From: Cyanobacteria bacterium P01_D01_bin.156
GTDB taxonomy: Bacteria; Cyanobacteriota; Cyanobacteriia; Phormidesmidales; Phormidesmidaceae
Direction of reading: 5' to 3'
DNA length: 32,715 nucleotides
Assembly: GCA_039024555.1 (NCBI GenBank)
Contig: JBCCQQ010000067.1
Span: forward strand, 1 to 32,715
The notes below the pieces were generated by a model. It was not told where the DNA came from. It ran no database searches and saw only the letters and a list, made by a program, of their open reading frames with translations. Position numbers and translations under genes: made by a program. This document shows, piece after piece, positions 1 to 21,330 of the stretch (within the stretch, counting starts at the first letter, position 1; the number at the start of each line of letters is the position of its first letter).

Positions 1-136
1 AGAAGGTTGTCGGTACATTTCCCGAAGTAGGTGCAAGGGTTGTGAGCATTTTAGCTAGTTTCCCGTGCACTTAAGCACGTCGCAATAGATTGAAACCCTT
101 GCAAAATCTGGGTGCCTGACTTTAACAGCAAACCCT
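1..136 (-). mobile_element. Left end of an IS5-family-like insertion sequence, including the first 6 codons of a probable transposase (ATG at 18, MYRQPS...); continues beyond the window
   Basis: The minus strand reads TA|GGGTTTGCTGTTAAAGTCAG... exactly where the tpsA paralogue loses similarity to its neighbour. An ORF start ATG TAC CGA CAA CCT TCT runs off the edge. Both resemble cyanobacterial IS5-family ends and MYR-starting transposases as I recall them; only one end is visible. Confidence 0.62.
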
Positions 137-484
137 AATTAGATACAAATTGGCACTGCTGCCAAAGACTTGTAACAGACCATCAATATACGAAGCACCA
201 CCTAAAACACTGCCTAGAACATTCTGCACCTCTGAGCCAGTGATAAAATTTGCTGTCTGTCCTGTACCTAAACTAAACTCATTGAAATTGTGAAAAAGGT
301 TAGCGCCATCACCAGACGCCGCACCTCCTGTAATGTCATACTGATTGTTAGTTTGATTAACTTGAGTTCCAGTACTTAGAGCACCCGTTTCAGGAGAAAT
401 CGATTGAGCGACAGCGGGTAATGTCAGCCCCAGAAACACGCAAGAAAGACTCTGAAGCAGTATTAGCCACACACGATTTACCAT
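122..484 (-). pseudogene. Filamentous haemagglutinin-family (TpsA-like) protein, N-terminal fragment interrupted by the IS
   Basis: Signal peptide followed by GANLFHNFNEFSL...NVLGSVLGGASYIDGLLQV..SANLYLI. It is clearly paralogous to 924..3071 but diverges to RVCC* where the paralogue has the conserved NPAG. Confidence 0.85.
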
Positions 485-723
485 TAAAACCTCTTCACCA
501 CAACTCTTTTAGAGCAGGTGCATACTTTAAATACTCAATTTCTATAAAATTAAATGCCCCCTAAAAGGTGGAATAAAACCACGCTTTAAAATAAAGCTTC
601 AGACATTAGCTGCTTTGACTAGCTATAAATTCAAAGTAGAGCACTTAGATATAATTTTTGATTGAATACACCCTAAATTGTTTCAGTATAAAAAGAAAGT
701 TTCCTTGAAGTGTTTCAACACCC

Positions 724-764
724 TTTCATAAAGGAGTAGTATTTCTTCATGCTCCTTTATGAAA
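724..764. other. 13-bp inverted repeat between the two tpsA genes
   Basis: TTTCATAAAGGAG (724-736) pairs with CTCCTTTATGAAA (752-764). There is no U-tract on either side, so function is unclear. Confidence 0.5.
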
Positions 765-923
765 TTGATTCAGTTATCCGGAGTGATTATATTTATCAGA
801 CAAATTGTTTCAGATAATAATTTTAATAGCATTAGCATAGATGAGCAGCCTCGAAAAAACTGTCTGACGACAGTCTCTTACTATAATCTGAGGTTAAAGT
901 CTTTTTTGATCTAGCTGAGGTAC

Positions 924-3071
924 TCACTGACATTCTTCTGGTAAAACTTCAGCCACTGAAAGAATATCTGTTGAAATAAAAGCACTACACATTTCATCAT
1001 TTACTGAAGACTCTATTTCTCTCTCCTCAACAAAATCTTCCTCAGTATCCTCTGGGTCCTCTAATCCTCCTATATTGTCTGTTGGCAACGTAGCACTCAG
1101 CACAATAGAATCTTCAAGCCCATCGGAGTTGGCAGTTTCTGGAGAATTAACTGGATTGCTTGGGTTAACTGGATTATCTGGGGTAACCGGATCAACTGGG
1201 TTGACTGGTTCAACTGGATTACCCGGATCAATTGGATCAACCGGATTAACTAGATCATACTCAATTCCTGAAACAAAAGATTCGATATAACCATTGCCTC
1301 CTATACCTATAACGATGGATCCTGCCGTTCCACTAGCATTTTCTGGGAAATTATCGGGGTCAACTTCAACCAGAGAGAACTCTTGAGTTACAGCAAACAC
1401 CCCGTCTATCAATCCATCGTATACATTAAAGCTAAATCCATCCTCGGGAGTTACAGCTTCAGGTCCCACAATGAAATTTTCCCCAGAGTGAGTAATTTGA
1501 ATACGACTATCGTCAGGATCAATCCCAAAATCAGGAGTCCTTGCTAAAATACTGACAGGAACTCCACTAATATCTTGTCTAATAAGTCTTCTTCTTTCTA
1601 CTTCTGAATCTTCAAACACTATCAAAGATAGTTTTCGTGTTTCAGAATTTACTGATGTTAGTGGAACAGTATCATTATTTATATCTACAAATACATATCC
1701 GTTCTCATCTACAAATTCCCTATTTAAGGTGGGAGGGGCATTACCGTCTGGAATCAGAAGATTTTCACTAATCAAAAAATTTCTAATATCAATGTTTTCA
1801 GGCTCATCTATATCCAATCTTGGTAATCCTGCTCTCTCATCAGGTCGAATAAAATCATCAAACGTTGCTTCTATTTTGCCTGTTGCCCTGAACAAGCCTG
1901 CTGCATTAATTTCTATAATTCCAGGCTCAGAATCAATACCATCTATTTGAATATCCCCAGCCAAAGATCTTAAGAAAACCCCTTTAGTGAGTAGCTCCTC
2001 CGAAGTAATATCACCACGAGCAACGTTTGTGATTATTCCACCAGTTATGTTTCCTTGAGCTACTAACTCAACAAGACCACCATTATTATTGATGTTATTC
2101 CAAATAACAATTTGACCGGCAGAAGAGATGAAAGTATCCCCTCCAGAAGTAATCTCATTTATTGTAATATTCGCAAATGGAGCAGATGTATTATCAGAAC
2201 TTATGACATCTTCTGAATTTGCTAAATAAACCTGCTCATTTTGAACGGTAAACTCCAGTCTCTGCAACACATCTGCTCCATTTGTTAGCAATCCAGGTAG
2301 GTCTAAAGGCCTAAAGACTTGATCATCGTCTCTCAAAATACTTTCTTCAAGTGACGGTACGATTAAGCTCAGTAAGTTACCTTCTTGACTAATTCTGACT
2401 AAGCCCTCTCCATGGACTGTTGCAATATTCACATTGCCCCTGACTGTCTCTATCGTGCCTGTATCACTGCTGTTAATGACGGCACCACCTACAAGTGTAA
2501 TACTCTCATCATTCTTTAACTTTGCTGTATTGACAACCAGCTTTGATTCTTCCTCTGAGAAGATTAGACTGGTTGGGTTATCTACTAACTGAGAATAGGC
2601 ATTCGTCTCTAGCAGATTAAAAATATTGTCACCAAAACCTAACCCTGTAGCCGTGGTAGCCGTAAATGCTCCATCCAAGTTCAATGCTGCATTCTCGCCA
2701 AACACAATACCTGCCGGGTTGAGAAAATATAGATTTGCACTGCTGCCAGATACTTGCAACGTACCATCGATAAAGGAAGAAGCACCACCCAAAACACCAC
2801 TCAAAACATTCTGTACCTCTGAGTCAGTGATGAAATTAACTGTTTGATCTTTAAGTAGAGTAAACTGATCAAAATTGTGAAAAAGGTTAGCACCATCCCC
2901 AGATAGCTCACCTCCTGTGATGTCGTACGTATCGTCAGCCTGATTAACTTGAGTCCCTGTTGTCAAATCACCATTTTCAGGAGAGATTAATTGAGCAACA
3001 GCTGGCAACATCAAACCTAGCCATGCAAAAGAGAACCCCTGAACTAGAACCAGCCAAACACGATTAAACAT
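924..3071 (-). CDS. Filamentous haemagglutinin N-terminal (TPS) domain exoprotein, TpsA-like
   Basis: Signal peptide ending AVA, then NLFHNF, ANLYFLNPAGIVFG and AFTATTA TPS motifs. Acidic C-terminal half with a Pro-rich repeat. SD-like GAGGAG upstream of the ATG. Confidence 0.9.
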   Translation of the reverse strand: MFNRVWLVLVQGFSFAWLGLMLPAVAQLISPENGDLTTGTQVNQADDTYDITGGELSGDGANLFHNFDQFTLLKDQTVNFITDSEVQNVLSGVLGGASSFIDGTLQVSGSSANLYFLNPAGIVFGENAALNLDGAFTATTATGLGFGDNIFNLLETNAYSQLVDNPTSLIFSEEESKLVVNTAKLKNDESITLVGGAVINSSDTGTIETVRGNVNIATVHGEGLVRISQEGNLLSLIVPSLEESILRDDDQVFRPLDLPGLLTNGADVLQRLEFTVQNEQVYLANSEDVISSDNTSAPFANITINEITSGGDTFISSAGQIVIWNNINNNGGLVELVAQGNITGGIITNVARGDITSEELLTKGVFLRSLAGDIQIDGIDSEPGIIEINAAGLFRATGKIEATFDDFIRPDERAGLPRLDIDEPENIDIRNFLISENLLIPDGNAPPTLNREFVDENGYVFVDINNDTVPLTSVNSETRKLSLIVFEDSEVERRRLIRQDISGVPVSILARTPDFGIDPDDSRIQITHSGENFIVGPEAVTPEDGFSFNVYDGLIDGVFAVTQEFSLVEVDPDNFPENASGTAGSIVIGIGGNGYIESFVSGIEYDLVNPVDPIDPGNPVEPVNPVDPVTPDNPVNPSNPVNSPETANSDGLEDSIVLSATLPTDNIGGLEDPEDTEEDFVEEREIESSVNDEMCSAFISTDILSVAEVLPEECQ
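1139..1250 (-). repeat. Degenerate 9-nt tandem repeat encoding a (V/x-N/D-P)n Pro-rich linker
   Basis: Translation VNPVDPIDPGNPVEPVNPVDPVTPDNPVNPSNPVNSP. Confidence 0.8.
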
Positions 3072-3413
3072 AGGGGATTTCTCCTCTCTATGGAGTAGAG
3101 TAAACGTATACTAGTCAAGATTTTCTTCGATAGAGTTTAAAAATCTGCAAACAGCACGTGGTCCACAAAAGATTATAGAACCTCAATAGGCAAACAGATT
3201 GATAAGCCTTGAGAAAGAAAGTATCACTTAAAAATTACACGAAATAATCGTAATTTTCTCTTAAAAGGAAACACGTATCTATTAATTCAATTCAATAATT
3301 CTTTACAACTGCGTAGCTTTCATGCGCTTAGTCAACAAAAGCTTCGCTGAAATATGACATCTAAAAAAACATCAAGGGCCTGATGCAGGTCTTACAACCT
3401 AATGCAACCGCCA

Positions 3414-5162
3414 TTAAAACCGATATCGAAGATTGAAATCCACCAGAATATCAGGTGATTCATCAGTAGAGACTAACGGTACGCCTAAATCCACTGAGGC
3501 ACTTAATCCCTCTACTGGATTAACCACTAATCCTATGCCAGTGCTCAGCAAGAAGTTATCATCCCCGAGAGCATCCTGAACATCATCATCCGAAAACCAC
3601 GCATAGGCCAAATCCACGAAGGGCACTAGCTGTAGCACAGCGTTATTATCCTGGTTGCGCTGCAGAGTGATGTAATCAGATACTGAAAATCGAAAGCCGC
3701 TATCCCCAAACTGCTCATTCTGAAAATAGCCTCGTACAGAGCTCGGTCCTCCAAGGAAAAACTGCTCTGACCCCGGTAGGCGATCATCCGTAATCTGCCA
3801 ATTTGTCTGAAAGACCAGCAAATGTTTTGGGTTTATCACCTGGGAACGCTGTGCCTGCCCTGCCCAGACAAAAAACGAATCATTTGTGTCTGTTGCATCA
3901 AATAGGTCGGTGCCAATACGAAACTGTGACTGTAGCGCCCAAGCCCCCTGCGTATCCCGTTTGAGATAGTCCTGCCCCAAAGATACTACGCTCGTTCTAA
4001 TCGATGGTGTGACATTTCCAGCAACAACAGATGAACCTTCGCGATAGCGTAACCCTGCAGAAAGGGCAAATTCTTCCCGAAGACTGCGAATTAATGGCTG
4101 CCGAATACTCGCTTCATAAATCTCAGTTGAGCCACTAGCATCCAGCCTTGATGGTGTAGCACTACGATTAGTAATCCGAAAATCACTAGGAGCTACTCTC
4201 AGCAAAATAGTCCCATTCATTGGATTAAGGGGCACCTGATAGGCAATTTCATAGGCTTCAGACCCTCCAGTAGTGGTCACATTCGCTGCCGTAGACAGAC
4301 GGTCCCCTAACCCAAGTAGATTCAAATATTCTAGACGTGCACCGCCGCGATAGCGCCCCACACTCAAAGGTGACAGAGTGTCAAAAGATAGACTGCCCTG
4401 TAGTGGTGCTGCCTCGGTAACTGTGACGATTAAAAGACTCTGCCCTACAGCAGTTCCCGGTGCTAGATCAGCTGTGACTTCATCAAATAGTGGATCAGTT
4501 TTCAGTAACCGCAGCTGCTCCTCAATACGAATTGAGTTAACAGGTGTTTTACCAGCTAAAGCAACTCGGCTATGGGCATAGGCCGCCAATCGCTCAGTAC
4601 CGGCAATCTGAATTTCCTCTAAACTGCCCTCAATTACTTGAATCTGAATAACACCATCTGCAATGGTTTGCTCAGGAACGATCGCTCGCGATGTAATATA
4701 ACCTGACTTGAGGTAGTGCCCCGTAATCGCATCTGCTACATCCTGTAGCTCTTCTACCGTCAAATTTAAGGGCTCATCAGATTGTGCGACTGTCCCCAAT
4801 TGCTCAGCAATTACCTGCATCAGTTCCTGATCATCAAAGACTGTGCTGCCAACAACCTCAATCTGACGAATCTCTAGACGCTCTAACGTATTGTCAGATG
4901 GTGCTGGTGTATCTTCCGATGCAGGCGGCGTTACCTCTTCTTCAGGTGATGAAGGTTCTAATGGTTCAGGTGATAAATCTAAATCAGGAAACCTATCCTG
5001 ACTCGGATCTGCTTGGCTAATTAGCCCAAAGCTATTAGCCGTCGAGAGTTCTTTAAAGCTAGGTCTACGTTCCCCATCATTTGCAGATGCTTCTGCTCCT
5101 AAGGCAGCTAAAACTACAAAAGATAATACCCAAACTCCACACAAAACCCGAAAAATCCCCAA
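3414..5162 (-). CDS. ShlB/FhaC/HecB-family (TpsB) outer-membrane secretion/activation protein
   Basis: POTRA-like IEVVGSTVF...ITGHYLKSGYITSRA...IQVIEG, barrel loop motif LGGPSSVRGY, C-terminal Phe (LRYRF). TTG start with GAGGA upstream. Confidence 0.92.
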   Translation of the reverse strand: MGIFRVLCGVWVLSFVVLAALGAEASANDGERRPSFKELSTANSFGLISQADPSQDRFPDLDLSPEPLEPSSPEEEVTPPASEDTPAPSDNTLERLEIRQIEVVGSTVFDDQELMQVIAEQLGTVAQSDEPLNLTVEELQDVADAITGHYLKSGYITSRAIVPEQTIADGVIQIQVIEGSLEEIQIAGTERLAAYAHSRVALAGKTPVNSIRIEEQLRLLKTDPLFDEVTADLAPGTAVGQSLLIVTVTEAAPLQGSLSFDTLSPLSVGRYRGGARLEYLNLLGLGDRLSTAANVTTTGGSEAYEIAYQVPLNPMNGTILLRVAPSDFRITNRSATPSRLDASGSTEIYEASIRQPLIRSLREEFALSAGLRYREGSSVVAGNVTPSIRTSVVSLGQDYLKRDTQGAWALQSQFRIGTDLFDATDTNDSFFVWAGQAQRSQVINPKHLLVFQTNWQITDDRLPGSEQFFLGGPSSVRGYFQNEQFGDSGFRFSVSDYITLQRNQDNNAVLQLVPFVDLAYAWFSDDDVQDALGDDNFLLSTGIGLVVNPVEGLSASVDLGVPLVSTDESPDILVDFNLRYRF

Positions 5163-16751: not shown

Positions 16752-16995
16752 TGTTTCAGAAAGACTCGTTACTTAACTTAACCCTCAGCCTTGGTCTTTA
16801 GCACAGTTGTTCCGTAGCTACAGTTGGTCAGTTGCCACACTGGTCTACGGGAGGCCACAGGTGCAGAGTTTGCCGAGGACACTATAAAATCCACATAAAC
16901 ATTGGATGGTTTTTGAGTCCTACTGGACCCCAGCTTTTTGAGCTGCAAAAACATTGTTAATTAAGACAATAAGACGCTGTTTCTACGATCTCTTT

Positions 16996-18921
16996 ATGGC
17001 TGCCGCTATCCTCATCCCTCAAGAGCAACAAAATCTTGCCCAGTCCATTGACTACAGTCATGTCCAGTCGGTGGCGGAAATTTGGCCCATTGTCGCTGAA
17101 CGGTTTCCCCAGCAGGTGGCCCTGGAGGACCCCCATGGCACTCCACAGATTACCCTCACCTATGGTGAACTAGCCCAGCAGATTCAGCAGTTTGCCGCCA
17201 GTTTGCAACAGTTGGGAGTGAACCCCCAGGATAAAATCGCCCTGTTTTCAGATAATCAGCCCCGCTGGCTAGTGGCTGACCAGGGGATTATGACTGCGGG
17301 GGCTGTGGATGCGGTACGGGGTTCCCAGGCTGATAAAGAAGAGCTGGCCTACATTCTCGACAATAGTGATGCCATGGCCATGATCGTTCAAGATCAGGCC
17401 ACCCTGACCAAGTTGGCTCCATTTTTAGGGGATAAGGGGCTGCGGTTTATTGTGTTGCTCTCCGATGAAATACCCCAGCTAGAAACAGACGCCAAACTAT
17501 TGAACTTTAACCAGCTGATGGAGCTGGGGGCGGGTAAGACCGTAAATTCGATGGAGCGCGATCGCAATTCTCTTGCCACTTTGATGTATACCTCCGGCAC
17601 ATCTGGCCGTCCTAAGGGAGTGATGCTGAGCCAGAGTAATTTGCTTTCTCAAATTTCTGGGGCCTGTAGCGTTGTGCGGCTTAGTGCCGGGGCTAAAGTC
17701 ATGAGCATTTTGCCCATTTGGCACTGTTACGAGCGCACCTTTGAATATTTCACCCTGTCCCAGGGGGTACATCAGATTTACACCAGTATTCGCTACGTCA
17801 AAAAAGACCTCAAAGCCTATCATCCCAACTATATGGTGGGTGTGCCCCGGCTGTGGGAGTCCATTTATGAGGGGGTACAAAAACAGTTTCGGGAACAGCC
17901 CGAGAGCAAACAAAAACTGATCAATTTCTTTTTGCACCAAAGCCAGCGTTACATCGCCGCTAAGCGCATTGCCGATAACCTGAGCCTTGACCAAGAACCT
18001 AATACCTTTGATCAGGCCATGGCCAATGCCCAGGCCGCTGTACTTTGGCCCGTTCATAAAATGGGCGATGCCATTGTCTATAAAAAAGTACGGGAAGCCA
18101 CGGGGGGAGCCATCGACTTTGTTGTGAGCGGCGGCGGCTCCATTGCCGATCACCTAGAAGATTTCTACGAAATCATCGGCGTCAATATCCTGGGTGGGTA
18201 CGGTCTGACCGAGACCTCTCCCATTACCCATGTGCGCCGACCCTGGCAGAATTTGCGCGGTGCCGATGGGCAGCCCTTGCCTGGTACTGAAACCCGGATT
18301 GTCGATCTCGACAGCCGTCAAGATTTACCCCAAGGTAAACAAGGGCTGGTGCTAATTCGCGGCCCTCAGGTGATGCAGGGCTATTACAAAAATACTGAAG
18401 CCACTGCCAAGGCCATTGATGCTGATGGCTGGTTTGACACGGGAGATCTAGGCAAGATTACGCCCAATGGTGATTTGATCATCACCGGACGGGCTAAGGA
18501 TACCATTGTGCTGACCAACGGCGAGAATATTGAACCCCAGCCTGTGGAAAATGCCTGTGCTCGCAGTGCTTACGTGGATCAAATTATGCTGGTGGGCCAG
18601 GATCAAAAGGTATTGGGCGCCCTGATTGTTCCCAATGTGGAAGCCCTGAGCCAGTGGGCGGCGACCCAGGGCATTACCATTGATGAAGCCAATCCGGCAG
18701 AGGCTTTGACAGATCCCAAGGTTCAAACCCTGTTTAAGCAAGAACTAACCCGAGAAGTTAAGGCCCGTCCTGGCTATCGTCCTGATGAGCGCATTGGCCC
18801 CTTTACACTGCTAAGTGAGCCTTTTTCTATTGAGAATGGCATGCTGACCCAAACTATGAAAATCAAGCGCCCGGTGGTCACCCGCAACTATCAAGAGGCG
18901 ATTGATCGTTTGTTTGACTAG
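16996..18921 (+). CDS. aas: Long-chain acyl-ACP/acyl-CoA synthetase (Aas)
   Basis: YTSGTSGRPKG, GYGLTE, GWFDTGDLG and GRAKDTIVLTNGENIEP AMP-binding motifs. Its position upstream of ylqD and pdhC fits cyanobacterial aas. ATG at 16996. Confidence 0.88.
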   Translation: MAAAILIPQEQQNLAQSIDYSHVQSVAEIWPIVAERFPQQVALEDPHGTPQITLTYGELAQQIQQFAASLQQLGVNPQDKIALFSDNQPRWLVADQGIMTAGAVDAVRGSQADKEELAYILDNSDAMAMIVQDQATLTKLAPFLGDKGLRFIVLLSDEIPQLETDAKLLNFNQLMELGAGKTVNSMERDRNSLATLMYTSGTSGRPKGVMLSQSNLLSQISGACSVVRLSAGAKVMSILPIWHCYERTFEYFTLSQGVHQIYTSIRYVKKDLKAYHPNYMVGVPRLWESIYEGVQKQFREQPESKQKLINFFLHQSQRYIAAKRIADNLSLDQEPNTFDQAMANAQAAVLWPVHKMGDAIVYKKVREATGGAIDFVVSGGGSIADHLEDFYEIIGVNILGGYGLTETSPITHVRRPWQNLRGADGQPLPGTETRIVDLDSRQDLPQGKQGLVLIRGPQVMQGYYKNTEATAKAIDADGWFDTGDLGKITPNGDLIITGRAKDTIVLTNGENIEPQPVENACARSAYVDQIMLVGQDQKVLGALIVPNVEALSQWAATQGITIDEANPAEALTDPKVQTLFKQELTREVKARPGYRPDERIGPFTLLSEPFSIENGMLTQTMKIKRPVVTRNYQEAIDRLFD

Positions 18922-19170
18922 GCAGAATGAACTCTGAGTATCGGTGTCTGTGGAAAGACGTAGAACACCAAACCGCTATCAAATAGGAATATTAATCCTT
19001 GGTGTGCGAGGCGCTGTCTTTACTTGATGCTTATAAAGCATAGACCACATCTTCGATAGTTTTACCATTTCAGTATCATTTGAGTCGGTGCCAAAATATG
19101 TGAAACAGAGGGAACGTTGACCGATTGGTCCGGTTTCCCAAGATTCACTTCGATACAGAGGAATTACCTA

Positions 19171-19314
19171 ATGTCTAAGCAAGTTAAAGCCGTTAAGGCC
19201 GCTCTCTGGCAGCCCGTCTCGAATAAGCAGGCAGAAATTATAAAAGGTGGCTACATTCATATTCATTCATATTGTTCTCGCACAAAAAAAATGATGTTTC
19301 CTCAAGCACGGTAG
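19171..19314 (+). CDS. Putative double-glycine-leader precursor peptide 1 (47 aa): MSKQVKAVKAALWQPVSNKQAEIIKGG|YIHIHSYCSRTKKMMFPQAR
   Basis: SD GAGGA before the ATG. The leader fits the hydrophobic-S-x-x-E/Q-x-x-x-I-x-GG consensus and is paralogous to peptides 3 and 4. Confidence 0.78.
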   Translation: MSKQVKAVKAALWQPVSNKQAEIIKGGYIHIHSYCSRTKKMMFPQAR

Positions 19315-19349
19315 GTTACTGGTTGACATTCACTGAAAGGAGTTATCTA

Positions 19350-19486
19350 CTGACTAACTGAATCAAAGCGTCCAAAGCGGTTCTCTGCTCAACAGACAGA
19401 AATTGCAAAAGGTATTGAATATGACACTATCCTTATTTTTGGGGTAACCGAACCCGAAAAATTATAGGTTTTCGCGTTATGTGTAA
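19350..19486 (+). pseudogene. Decayed copy (no. 2) of the precursor peptide gene
   Basis: AAGGAG SD retained, ATG changed to CTG, in-frame TGA at codon 4. IKASKAVL aligns with VKAVKAAL; after a frameshifting deletion it reads QTEIAKG. Same 3' flank as the other units. Confidence 0.65.
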
Positions 19487-19591
19487 GTTATCGGTTGATA
19501 CTCGCTAATTCTACAAAAAATCAACTAGAGGAAACGCGGGCTTGTTAGTTCGATTTCCAAATGTCCATCTCAATTACAAAGGAAATTTCCA

Positions 19592-19735
19592 ATGGCTAAG
19601 CAAGCCCAAAAATCTGAAGCAGTTAATGCGATTCTCTGGCATCCTATTGTTGATAAGCAAGCAGAAGTTGTCAAAGGTGGCCTTAAAACACATTACGGTA
19701 GCTTTTGTCCTATAACTAAGAAACTTATGCGTTAG
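19592..19735 (+). CDS. Putative double-glycine-leader precursor peptide 3 (47 aa): MAKQAQKSEAVNAILWHPIVDKQAEVVKGG|LKTHYGSFCPITKKLMR
   Basis: Translated by hand (below the ORF-track cutoff). AAGGA SD; leader and core motif shared with peptides 1 and 4. Confidence 0.78.
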   Translation: MAKQAQKSEAVNAILWHPIVDKQAEVVKGGLKTHYGSFCPITKKLMR

Positions 19736-19794
19736 GGGCGTTAGATATAAGGTCTCGATTGATATTCGCTAGTTCTACAAAAATTCAGCACGCC

Positions 19795-19836
19795 AATCGT
19801 TAGAGGAACCTCTTGCAGGTTCCTCTAACGATTTTT
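19795..19836 (+). terminator. Intrinsic terminator after peptide block A
   Basis: Perfect 17-bp stem AATCGTTAGAGGAACCT / AGGTTCCTCTAACGATT, 5-nt loop, T-run. Confidence 0.85.
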
Positions 19837-19887
19837 GATTTAGGGTTGAGGGATCGGTAGACTGGTCCGTCGTGTTGGTCCATACGC

Positions 19888-20138
19888 CCAAAACCACAGA
19901 AAATCTTCTAACAGCACCCTTTCTAGCCGGAGCGGGTAATAGACCTATTGGAATTAATCAATAAACCCCACTATTTAAATTTCATGGACGCTTCGCAATC
20001 CCAACTACTATTAAAGCGAGTTATCAACGTAAAAGCCGTTGTCACTCCCATCTGGAAAGAAGAAGCCCAGAACCAGCTGCAAAAGCAGATTAATGATGTT
20101 GACAAGCGTTTACAGCAGCTCGAAATGCAGGGCCAGCG
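19888..20138 (+). repeat. About 250-bp direct repeat (copy 1) of the ylqD upstream region and 5' coding end; copy 2 is at 20793..21044
   Basis: Aligns by eye from CCAAAACCACAGAAAATC to GGCCAGCG. Confidence 0.92.
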
Positions 20139-20166
20139 TAGTGAGGTGACACCACGAGACCGTTAG
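19984..20166 (+). pseudogene. Truncated YlqD-family gene (first 52 codons, then the unrelated tail SEVTPRDR*)
   Basis: Near-identical to the N-terminus of 20890..21330. Confidence 0.85.
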
Positions 20167-20422
20167 GTGTTTTGTGGGTATGCAGGAAGTCGTAGATGCT
20201 GGCAGCAAATCCATAGAATACTGAACAGCCATCAGTCGGGTATATCAATCCTTCATGCATTGGGAGCTTCCTTTACTTTGGGCTCATGAAAAACGTGATA
20301 AAACCTCCGTGCTTTAATCGTTACAGCATGATTGTAGTCGGTGCCAATATGTGCGGTGTGGAAGCAACGTTGGCCGCTGGGCTCGACTTCCTCTGTTCAT
20401 CTCAGTTGCAAAGGAATTTCTA

Positions 20423-20596
20423 ATGTCTAAGCAAGTTCAAACTCCTAAAACCATTAAGACAGCTCTCTGGCAGTCCATTTCTGACCAGCAAGCAGAATCT
20501 ATGAAAGGTGGCAGTATAATGCGACTTCCCAACGGACAACCGTTTTGCACTACAACCAAGTCAAAGATGGGTAATGCTGCATGGTATTCTCACTGA
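20423..20596 (+). CDS. Putative double-glycine-leader precursor peptide 4 (57 aa): MSKQVQTPKTIKTALWQSISDQQAESMKGG|SIMRLPNGQPFCTTTKSKMGNAAWYSH
   Basis: AAGGA SD before the ATG at 20423; paralogous leader and FC-x-x-TK-x-x-M core motif. Confidence 0.78.
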   Translation: MSKQVQTPKTIKTALWQSISDQQAESMKGGSIMRLPNGQPFCTTTKSKMGNAAWYSH

Positions 20597-20674
20597 GCAA
20601 AGTTAATCCTCAAGGATCAAATGTCGGCTGACACTAGCCGATTTCATAAGACATTGCTTAAATAAAGCCTGTGC

Positions 20675-20715
20675 ATCACTAGAGGCACCTACGAGAGGTG
20701 CCTCTAGTGATTTTT
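20675..20715 (+). terminator. Intrinsic terminator after peptide block B
   Basis: Perfect 16-bp stem ATCACTAGAGGCACCT / AGGTGCCTCTAGTGAT plus TTTT; homologous to the 19795 hairpin. Confidence 0.85.
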
Positions 20716-20889
20716 GAGTTATGTTCTATAGCGCTATGTGACAACCAGTCAGATTTGCCAAGAAGAAACCCTGGTTGTCATCCCTGATGATTCCAAAACC
20801 ACAGAAAATCTTTTAATAGCGACCTTTCTAGCCGGAGCGGGTAATATACCTATTGGAATTAATCAATAAACCTAACTATTTTAAGTTTC

Positions 20890-21330
20890 ATGGACGCTTC
20901 GCAATCTCAACTACTTTTAAAGCGAGTTATCAACGTCAAGGCCGTTGTTACTCCCCTCTGGAAAGAAGAAGCCCAGAATCAGCTGCAAAAGCAGATTAAT
21001 GATGTTGACAAGCGTTTACAGCAGCTCGAAATGCAGGGCCAGCGCATGGTGGGTGAGCTTCAAAAGCAAGAGAGTCAAGAAGCTGTCCAAAAGCAGATGG
21101 CGGCTGTTCAAAGCAAGCTTAATGAAGAAAAAAATAAGCTGCTACAGCAAAAGAATCAGGTCCTACAGCAGCTTCAACAAGTACAGACCTTGGAACTGAA
21201 TAAAGAAGTAAGCCAAGGTCAAATCGACGGCTTTTTTAAGGCCGCCCAAGGTGACAACCTGGTTAAAAAAATGCAGGTGGAAATATTGCTACGGGATGGC
21301 GTTATCGAAGAAATTCGCGGTGAGCTGTAG
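20890..21330 (+). CDS. YlqD-family coiled-coil protein
   Basis: LLLKRVINVKAVVTPLWKEE...MQVEILLRDGVIEEIRG, Gln-rich coiled coil, located between aas and pdhC. Confidence 0.85.
   Translation: MDASQSQLLLKRVINVKAVVTPLWKEEAQNQLQKQINDVDKRLQQLEMQGQRMVGELQKQESQEAVQKQMAAVQSKLNEEKNKLLQQKNQVLQQLQQVQTLELNKEVSQGQIDGFFKAAQGDNLVKKMQVEILLRDGVIEEIRGEL

Follow-up and report, generated by a model that had tools for sequence, protein, structure and literature searches.

A dispersed family of double-glycine leader peptide genes, most with an aromatic-Cys-x-x-Thr core, in a marine cyanobacterium of the Phormidesmidaceae

Between positions 19,171 and 20,596 of a 32,715-nt stretch of DNA (contig JBCCQQ010000067.1 of Cyanobacteria bacterium P01_D01_bin.156, hereafter the window), three short open reading frames (ORFs) encode peptides with a double-glycine (GG) leader and a small core, and no partner gene accompanies them. 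What such peptides are, and which machinery would serve them, is the question that this locus raises. The original prediction had taken them for an array of orphan precursors that act in trans and belong to no recognised family. Both of the latter points found support: the C39 exporters of the genome are encoded elsewhere, and none of the three peptides matched a Pfam or NCBIfam model at E values up to 10. We consider that there is about an even chance that they belong to a co-regulated repertoire of unmodified, cationic, single-Cys hairpin peptides, candidate antagonists that would be exported in trans. The genome-wide family, its shared upstream cassette, the insertion pattern of this cassette and the leader's distant relationship with the CTB family, described below, had not been foreseen.

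The peptide family and its core motif

The source genome (G000, 99% complete) was searched with a profile of the three window peptides, and the search was then iterated over short frames that contain the pattern W...GG. The search converged on 24 genes at 16 loci, set off by a clean gap in E values (1e-11, next 6.7), and homologues were found in relatives, so that the profile search proposed earlier did extend the family beyond the window. An aromatic-C-x-x-T core was present in 16 of the 24 genes, at 10 loci, and the other eight combine the same leader with different cores. This core had initially been described as [FY]CxxTKxxM. Its aromatic-C-x-x-T part was common to all 16 copies, but the motif proved wider, the aromatic residue being mostly W (W in 11, F in three, Y in two), the residue following T being K in nine, R in three, G in three and H in one, and the position of the M being held by M in nine and by another hydrophobic residue in seven. 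The predicted cores comprise 17–35 residues, with a positive net charge in 15 of the 16 and a single Cys in 14.

Thirty-two core-bearing members were aligned (alignment A3). Two long repeat proteins, P0017 and P0022, were dropped as spurious, and P0010, P0024, and P0027, which do not carry the core motif, were left out. The conservation of GG and Cys-x-x-Thr expected of a real family was observed, in members that had been chosen for having the core: L, both G, and C were invariant in 32/32 and T was kept in 30/32, the two others having Ala or Ser with the Cys retained. When the 16 G000 cores were shuffled 20,000 times, [FWY]CxxT arose in a mean of 0.25 cores (maximum 4) versus 16/16 observed; this excess owes partly to common ancestry, and the evidence for selection therefore rests on codon use. 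In the 22 copies with DNA, the invariant sites use all six Leu codons, all four codons at both Gly and at Thr, and both Cys codons. The comparison of dN/dS between leader and core that had been suggested gave, for the leader pooled over 20 copies, a pS of 0.62, a pN of 0.23, and a dN/dS of 0.21, and synonymous sites were saturated in the motif block. The cores of one paralogue pair differed at seven of 15 synonymous sites versus two of 51 replacement sites. Judged from these substitution patterns, the family members are functional genes under protein-level selection. In one pair of G013, the leaders are almost identical and the cores very different, which suggests core swapping or gene conversion.

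Among the 173 genomes of the taxonomic family, 10 had a match. Beyond G000, the Cys core was found in G013 (four copies), G145 (one copy), and G158 (one copy, with Ala replacing Thr). Protein collections added ten further core-bearing sequences from metagenome assemblies, all annotated as hypothetical and, where a name was given, assigned to Leptothoe kymatousa, Phormidesmis sp., or an unclassified cyanobacterium. In the named contigs of GTDB, a pattern that demanded Trp, and hence missed Phe-type leaders, gave 49 matches and one locus (L128, Leptothoe kymatousa), which is an array of the peptide family and was not counted as an extra genome. None of 62 pattern matches in JGI metagenomes was confirmed, and none of six matches to a second pattern was a member on translation. 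Weak profile matches (E 1e-5 to 9e-4) came from 12 other genomes when 401 of the class were sampled; their leaders are of general CTB type, several beside a peptidase-containing ABC transporter (PCAT), and the C-x-x-T core was absent on inspection from all 12. The core thus seems confined to one cyanobacterial family among the genomes searched, and the leader type is widespread.

A sequence search of the PDB with the peptides gave a best E value of 0.73. The ESM Atlas returned unnamed clusters at 0.90 (137–138 shared features) and, below 0.9, ComC and lantibiotic clusters, all of which were treated as leads only. The literature retrieved contained no description of the core, with the limits that the motif itself could not be queried and that the supplements searched were those of PMC3140520. 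A motif search of five of these supplement files found no member, and the precursor table is possibly not present there as sequence. The supplements of genome-mining papers may already list members.

Other leader relatives were seen in G000. Two genes, L031:7443-7631 (C46) and L045:7624-7800 (C90), are leader kin that hardly differ from each other; their cores are rich in Gly and Trp with a Cys at the end, and they have a common upstream region of their own, distinct from the main cassette. A second subfamily has Arg/Gly-rich cores, several of which end in RG (L048:6878-7595, L035:9195-10413, and L034:7552-8763), and is arrayed, in each of G000, G013, and G021, 5' of a TPS-domain gene that is orthologous between them.

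The window locus and the shared upstream cassette

The features of the window locus, all on the forward strand, are listed below, with the two flanking genes at the end.

18972–19164 (+): upstream cassette of copy 1, promoter-like, with homologues 5' of 13 further family genes
19171–19314 (+): precursor 1, 47 aa, GG at residues 26–27, predicted mature core of 20 aa, net charge +4, one Cys
about 19335–19467 (+, approximate): decayed copy, with CTG for ATG, an in-frame stop and a frameshift
19592–19735 (+): precursor 2, 47 aa, predicted core of 17 aa, net charge +4
19795–19833 (+): intrinsic-terminator-like hairpin, 17 pairs and a T run, closing copies 1 and 2
19888–20142 (+): partial duplicate of the ylqD upstream region and of the gene's 5' third, which breaks off after 53 codons
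20224–20419 (+): upstream cassette of copy 3, promoter-like, held-out match of 16.1 bits and recovered in the genome scan
20423–20596 (+): precursor 3, 57 aa, predicted core of 27 aa, net charge +3, one Cys
20675–20711 (+): intrinsic-terminator-like hairpin, 16 pairs and a T run, 3' of copy 3
16954–18921 (+): long-chain fatty-acid--CoA ligase-like gene, flank, outside the system
20890–21330 (+): intact ylqD-family gene, flank, context only (Pfam PF11068, E 1.6e-40)

The three intact ORFs of 47–57 aa were found as described, each with a purine-rich Shine-Dalgarno-like run 7–9 nt upstream, as was the decayed copy, which has lost its start and its frame and whose leader shows a 14-nt gap relative to copy 1. 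The shared GG leader was equally clear, since the alignment of the three peptides has 15 invariant columns, including L-W, Q-A-E, and K-G-G, besides the C, T-K, and M of the core. They do not form a single array, as copy 3 is set apart from the others by a terminator and the partial ylqD duplicate. This duplicate (coding part 19984–20142) has 94% DNA identity over 252 nt to the original, whereas the peptide units that flank it are 67% alike. The upstream cassette of copy 2 is reduced to a remnant at 19527–19585 (E 6.8), and this copy is therefore probably read together with copy 1. Contigs of run X1 cover 18717–20041 and 20109–21009 with zero differences and even depth; because X1 is possibly the source of the window, this coverage argues only against gross misassembly.

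About 190 nt located 5' of the genes are homologous, and this cassette is carried by 14 G000 genes. An nhmmer profile built from six copies matched 12 of the 24 5' regions held out, with scores of at least 10 bits, among them those of window copies 1 (22.6 bits for 18972–19164) and 3 and of two genes with cores other than C-x-x-T. A rebuilt profile gave 17 matches in G000 at E<1e-4, 14 of which precede family genes and three of which are orphans. The central 95 nt align almost gap-free, and short motifs repeat within the cassette. It was rejected as a coding sequence, as no codon periodicity was found, and as a structured RNA, as no consensus RNA pairs were found. An almost gap-free centre with neither of these properties would fit a promoter with fixed spacing. 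The orphan cassettes are located at C14:41693-41587 and C50:2121-2213, where no gene follows, and at C7:66802-66686, 5' of a PAS histidine kinase.

The intergenic gaps that hold the peptide genes were compared with those of congeners at three loci. Between the ligase-like gene and ylqD, the gap measures 119–497 nt in 16 of 19 congener loci versus 1972 nt here, and a peptide was found in 0/19. The corresponding gap at the C2 locus is 202–632 nt in 13 of 20 congeners versus 1914 nt in G000, with no peptide or promoter match, and that of the C55 locus is 78–164 nt in 13 of 16 congeners (one of them placed by a weak match) versus 1000 nt, again with no peptide or promoter match. Since the gaps of congeners were empty at all three loci tested, the cassettes at these positions are lineage-specific insertions. 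Such peptide genes are therefore able to disperse as promoter-bearing cassettes, a spread seen at three loci. No common terminal repeat or REP was found at the 3' ends of the copies, and none of six Y1 transposase matches lies near a copy, so that a spread driven by REP/TnpA was unsupported. A tree of the cassette DNA (19 rows, cassette-less copies excluded) was star-like and gives no order of events.

An orthologous TPS-domain gene (53–73% identity) flanks Cys-core copies in G000, G013, G145, and G158, and this site is likely an older location of the family. In G158 an exporter follows directly at this locus; contig C106 ends 168 nt past its last copy, at the place that the exporter occupies in G158. 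The TPS gene that adjoins the Cys-core copy of G145 is broken into several frames in the assembly (L082:1968-5135). The window itself begins with two TPS-domain genes, one of them short, and, upstream, a putative outer-membrane-transporter-like gene (122–5162 in all).

Export, modification and predicted fold

Precursors with GG leaders are cleaved and exported by C39 peptidase ABC transporters. In the present family, GG is placed exactly 14 residues from the L-[WF] pair in 22/22 copies; position −12 is hydrophobic in all 22, position −4 is hydrophobic in 21 and Thr in one, and at position −7 every copy has A, S, T, or E. Leader kin are encoded directly beside a short C39 transporter, usually together with HlyD, in G021, G020, G158, G187, G196, G016, G017, and G015. 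The idea that homologues might neighbour PCAT/HlyD genes was thus upheld, for leader kin, in eight relatives. The first gene of the G158 array next to the exporter has the Cys core, and it is the only Cys-core copy with a PCAT neighbour. A weak leader-kin match (E 0.04) lies beside one C39 transporter in G145, and leader kin were absent at three (L219, where the contig ends at the gene start, L220, and L221) of the seven PCAT loci in the set that included those of G016, G017, and G015.

Five C39 matches were found in G000, three of which are short PCATs. The exporter of C49 (L032:13532-15673) has 74% identity to the peptide-adjacent one of G021, groups with it, and has intact C-H-D motifs. These motifs are also intact in the exporter of C46 (L031:11946-14156); about 2 kb from the HlyD of this exporter, beyond psbQ and an FAD oxidoreductase gene, are two leader kin. 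Export in trans is likely, given the short C39 exporters next to leader kin in relatives and their intact homologues in G000; on this sequence evidence, a distantly encoded C39 ABC transporter most likely cleaves the precursors after GG and carries them out of the cell.

Further transporter loci were noted. Five genes intervene between the C77 copy and an NHLP-type transporter at a distance of 5 kb, which was therefore considered incidental. This transporter forms a pair (L030:13156-18315; TIGR03796 above cut-off) with no HlyD or precursor directly adjoining. In C46, a 48-aa ORF between the divergent hlyD and C39 genes (L031:11458-11604) has a GG followed by a short aromatic tail; its leader is of another type with no NCBIfam match, and it is probably the own substrate of that transporter. 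Long GG-leader arrays with recurrent hydrophobic core motifs lie beside PCATs at L130, L141 (G198), L140 (G231), L217 (G017), and L131 (G196); the G231 array adjoins a subtilase-family (S8) gene, and those of G198 and G196 adjoin a gene of about 300 aa.

The Cys-Thr thioether ring that had been proposed for the cores was not supported, as G000 gave no match for four enzyme types searched for and the Thr is replaced in two of 32 members. LanM (PF13575) had no match in G000, G013, G145, or G158, with a positive control of one in G021, and LanC-like proteins (PF05147) had none in G000, again with one in G021. HopA1-like lyases (PF17914) and YcaO (PF02624) were found in 0/5 genomes, with controls found in 1/14 and 5/14 genomes, respectively; a LanB search gave no match anywhere, controls included, and is no proof by itself. 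No modifying gene was found at the 16 G000 loci or at the TPS-side locus of G013, G145, and G158. Glycosyl- or acyl-transferases were found beside none of the copies, no genome-wide search for them having been made.

Radical-SAM proteins gave 20 matches in G000, one with a SPASM domain and 19 unclassified. The SPASM gene, 1.3 kb from two copies, was found in 106 of the 173 family genomes and 19 of 21 congeners, but not in G013, and the same neighbourhood has no trace of the two peptides at 16/16 congener loci. It was rejected as a maturase because it is genus-wide and congeners keep its neighbourhood without the peptides. This gene (L041:4711-5793, C55) matched no NCBIfam family above cut-off and occurs in 0/53 genomes of one genus. 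One peptide copy adjoins an apparent biosynthetic cluster on C8 (L044:205-7242), in which a CmlA-like diiron hydroxylase is fused to a TubC docking domain and a terminal reductase; the cluster further comprises genes for a methyltransferase and a class III aminotransferase and two others with no Pfam match.

AlphaFold models of two members showed a hairpin, with strands at residues 33–35 and 40–42 in precursor 1 (pLDDT 84 over residues 31–40) and at 29–36 and 41–48 in L039:11021 (pLDDT about 90). In both, the strands are joined by a turn of four residues that is closed by the C and by the second residue following T, and this is the most confident part of the model. The predicted hairpin turn may thus offer a reason for the motif other than modification. 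A fold search of the PDB with both models gave no match at E<=0.001, and a homodimer prediction over residues 20–49 (score 0.02) was not used as evidence. C-x-x-T-G-K resembles degenerate zinc-knuckle and D-x-x-T-K hairpin turns.

Candidate roles and comparison with known systems

These results suggest that each gene may be a small self-contained cassette, consisting of a promoter-like region, a Shine-Dalgarno sequence, a GG-leader precursor and usually a terminator, that would have been copied into many intergenic gaps in the G000 lineage, as at the three loci above. Through their common 5' region, the copies are probably controlled by a single regulator. The precursors would be cut after GG by a short-type C39 peptidase ABC transporter which, with HlyD, would export them, the C49 and C46 exporters being the best candidates, a role suggested by the gene neighbourhoods of relatives and by what is established about PCATs. 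The expected products are peptides of 17–35 residues, mostly cationic and without enzymatic cyclisation, in which aromatic-C-x-x-T-[KG]-K would form a hairpin turn with one free cysteine between freely varying flanks. The upkeep of a varied set of small, cationic, aromatic hairpins suggests antagonism, and an outward-directed role similar to that of class II bacteriocins or microcins is put forward tentatively as the likeliest, at somewhat less than an even chance. The GG motif is no predictor of bacteriocin activity (PMC12267927).

Several observations weigh against such a repertoire of unmodified exported antagonists. No candidate ORF for an immunity gene was found beside the window copies or any other G000 copy. 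Chemistry would account for a strictly invariant Cys better than the shape of a hairpin by itself, and the global confidence of the AlphaFold models was low (pTM 0.25 and 0.33, for 47–49 residues and 32 rows). In LahT (PMC6363468), leader positions −4, −7, and −12 occupy a hydrophobic groove and Leu-7 matters; the small or polar −7 of the present leaders differs, and cleavage by a standard PCAT is therefore not guaranteed, although the conserved L-W pair further upstream may compensate. The G158 exporter has no clear orthologue in G000 (48–52% identity to the three short PCATs). G013, which has four core copies, gave a long-type C39 match only and none to the short exporter, in a genome that is 75% complete and in which ylqD was also missing. 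Finally, PMC8225149 reports that no bacteriocin cluster was found in Le. kymatousa TAU-MAC 1615 (record L128).

The invariance of the Cys could also reflect a family of peptides that are made by ribosomes and modified after translation (RiPPs), in which one trans-acting enzyme from outside the families searched would modify aromatic-C-x-x-T before PCAT export, by a thioether cross-link, S-glycosylation, S-acylation, or prenylation. The retention of Cys in 32/32 and Thr in 30/32 members beside free flanks would fit this, as would the 20 radical-SAM matches that were not classified singly and the fact that glycosyl-, acyl-, and prenyl-transferases lay outside the genome-wide searches. Many orphan precursors served by one distant enzyme also recall the prochlorosin pattern (PMC3140520; 10.1101/2020.03.09.984088). 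However, LanM, LanC-like, HopA1, and YcaO proteins were all missing from G000 with working positive controls, the only SPASM enzyme is spread over 106 of 173 family genomes and the peptides near it are an insertion absent at 16/16 congener loci, no modifying gene adjoins the 16 G000 loci or the TPS-side loci of the three relatives, and one member has Ala for Thr. We regard this explanation as unlikely, if credible. A related proposal, which we hold to be quite unlikely, is that of a lineage-specific regulon of peptide cassettes spreading into intergenic gaps and feeding one distant exporter, the products of which would form a new class of peptides based on a single-Cys beta-hairpin, with the aromatic-Cys-x-x-Thr turn as the site of undescribed chemistry. 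This would involve either a trans enzyme outside the LanM, LanC, HopA1, YcaO, and SPASM families or enzyme-free Cys pairing or metal bridging, which would make the 16 variants a combinatorial library.

Alternatively, the products could be matrix or adhesion peptides similar to EbfG1-4, which, once exported by a PCAT, would stack as hairpins or bind anionic polysaccharide, cross-link through Cys, and act with neighbouring TPS-domain exoproteins. EbfG1-4, which have GG leaders, leave the cell through the C39 transporter PteB and are required for biofilm (PMC4997328), and EbfG1-3 form amyloid (10.1101/2022.07.13.498973). The core copies adjoin an orthologous TPS-domain gene in four genomes, and G000, G013, G016, G020, and G021 share another array, made up of leader kin and likewise linked to a TPS gene. 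Yet the present cores are cationic and of 2–4 kDa versus 6–7 kDa for EbfG, a TPS gene adjoins only three of the 16 G000 loci in a genome with 24 TPS matches, and sixteen divergent copies would exceed the apparent structural need; this too is doubtful, and we see it as an unlikely account. It is decidedly improbable that the peptides are pheromones of a density-sensing circuit, in which they would, once exported, activate a response regulator that drives their common promoter. The nearly gap-free promoter-like block with repeated short motifs, the orphan cassette 5' of the PAS histidine kinase (C7:66802, E 4.5e-5), and ComC clusters at 0.86–0.88 in the ESM Atlas, a lead only, would agree with signalling. 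But this kinase shows only PAS and ATPase domains in Pfam, with no sign of an outside sensor, the two other orphans precede no gene and may be debris, as the third might be, and no receptor adjoins any copy. Sixteen variants per genome are also unusual for a signal. Hardly probable at all is a selfish or neutral unit, copied around and now decaying without function: lineage-specific insertions, the decayed copy in the window, and promoter-only remnants are what it would leave, but protein-level purifying selection with near-saturated synonymous sites, 24 intact frames, 3' ends with no common terminal repeat or REP, and the distance of all six Y1 transposase matches from any copy speak against it.

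In cyanobacteria, hundreds of GG precursors are encoded whose products are almost all unknown and whose cores have been reported as unconserved. This family offers several handles, namely a core motif that is fixed and selected, a fold prediction, a common promoter-like region, and named exporter candidates, and a cultured strain (record L128) carries four copies. Peptide genes dispersed as cassettes escape cluster-based genome mining, and if the cysteine is modified, the enzyme would lie outside the families usually searched.

The closest relatives of the leader are those of the CTB family bacteriocins (NCBIfam NF038167, cyan_ocin_like), likewise short cyanobacterial GG-leader precursors in arrays. 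Ten of the 32 members matched this model weakly, mostly over the N-terminal leader (profile positions 2–43 of 72); the best scored 19.6 bits versus a curated cut-off of 32, and the three window peptides gave no match. As these scores fall under the cut-off, the peptide family is not a CTB member, and its leader is distantly akin. It further differs by short cationic cores with an invariant Cys and by dispersed genes with their own promoter. CTB arrays in Nodularia are transcribed and induced by phosphorus limitation (PMC9846622), and in PMC9846622 and PMC9679502 CTB appears only as an annotation.

The same GG-leader/PCAT workings were described for cyanobacterial short-C39/HlyD clusters (Wang, Fewer, Sivonen 2011, PMC3140520), where GG precursors lie beside PCAT and HlyD, mostly without lanthionine machinery and with unknown products. 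That survey reports very little conservation of cores, in contrast to the invariant core motif here, and as most copies here are far from transporters, they would have been missed by its 20-kb search. Cleavage and export of GG-leader proteins by a C39 transporter have been shown experimentally in a cyanobacterium for EbfG1-4/PteB of Synechococcus elongatus PCC 7942; this is a single four-gene operon beside its exporter, with larger mature products and a biofilm role (PMC4997328).

Prochlorosins (ProcA/ProcM) are likewise a lineage-specific expansion of precursors with a conserved leader and a variable core, served in trans. The present family differs by its short leader, which had no match to Nif11, by the lack of LanM in G000 and by one Cys in a fixed motif, and the association with Y1/REP transposases reported in 10.1101/2020.03.09.984088 has no counterpart here. 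The HopA1/phosphotransferase 'Family 1A' (Eyles et al. 2021) also has cyanobacterial GG leaders and several non-identical precursors per locus, but its cores, as given in PMC8153245, have no conserved Ser, Thr, or Cys, unlike those described here, and HopA1 is missing from G000. While the GG-leader/PCAT type was already known, the conserved single-Cys core, predicted to form a hairpin, and the dispersal of the genes as promoter-bearing cassettes set the present family apart.

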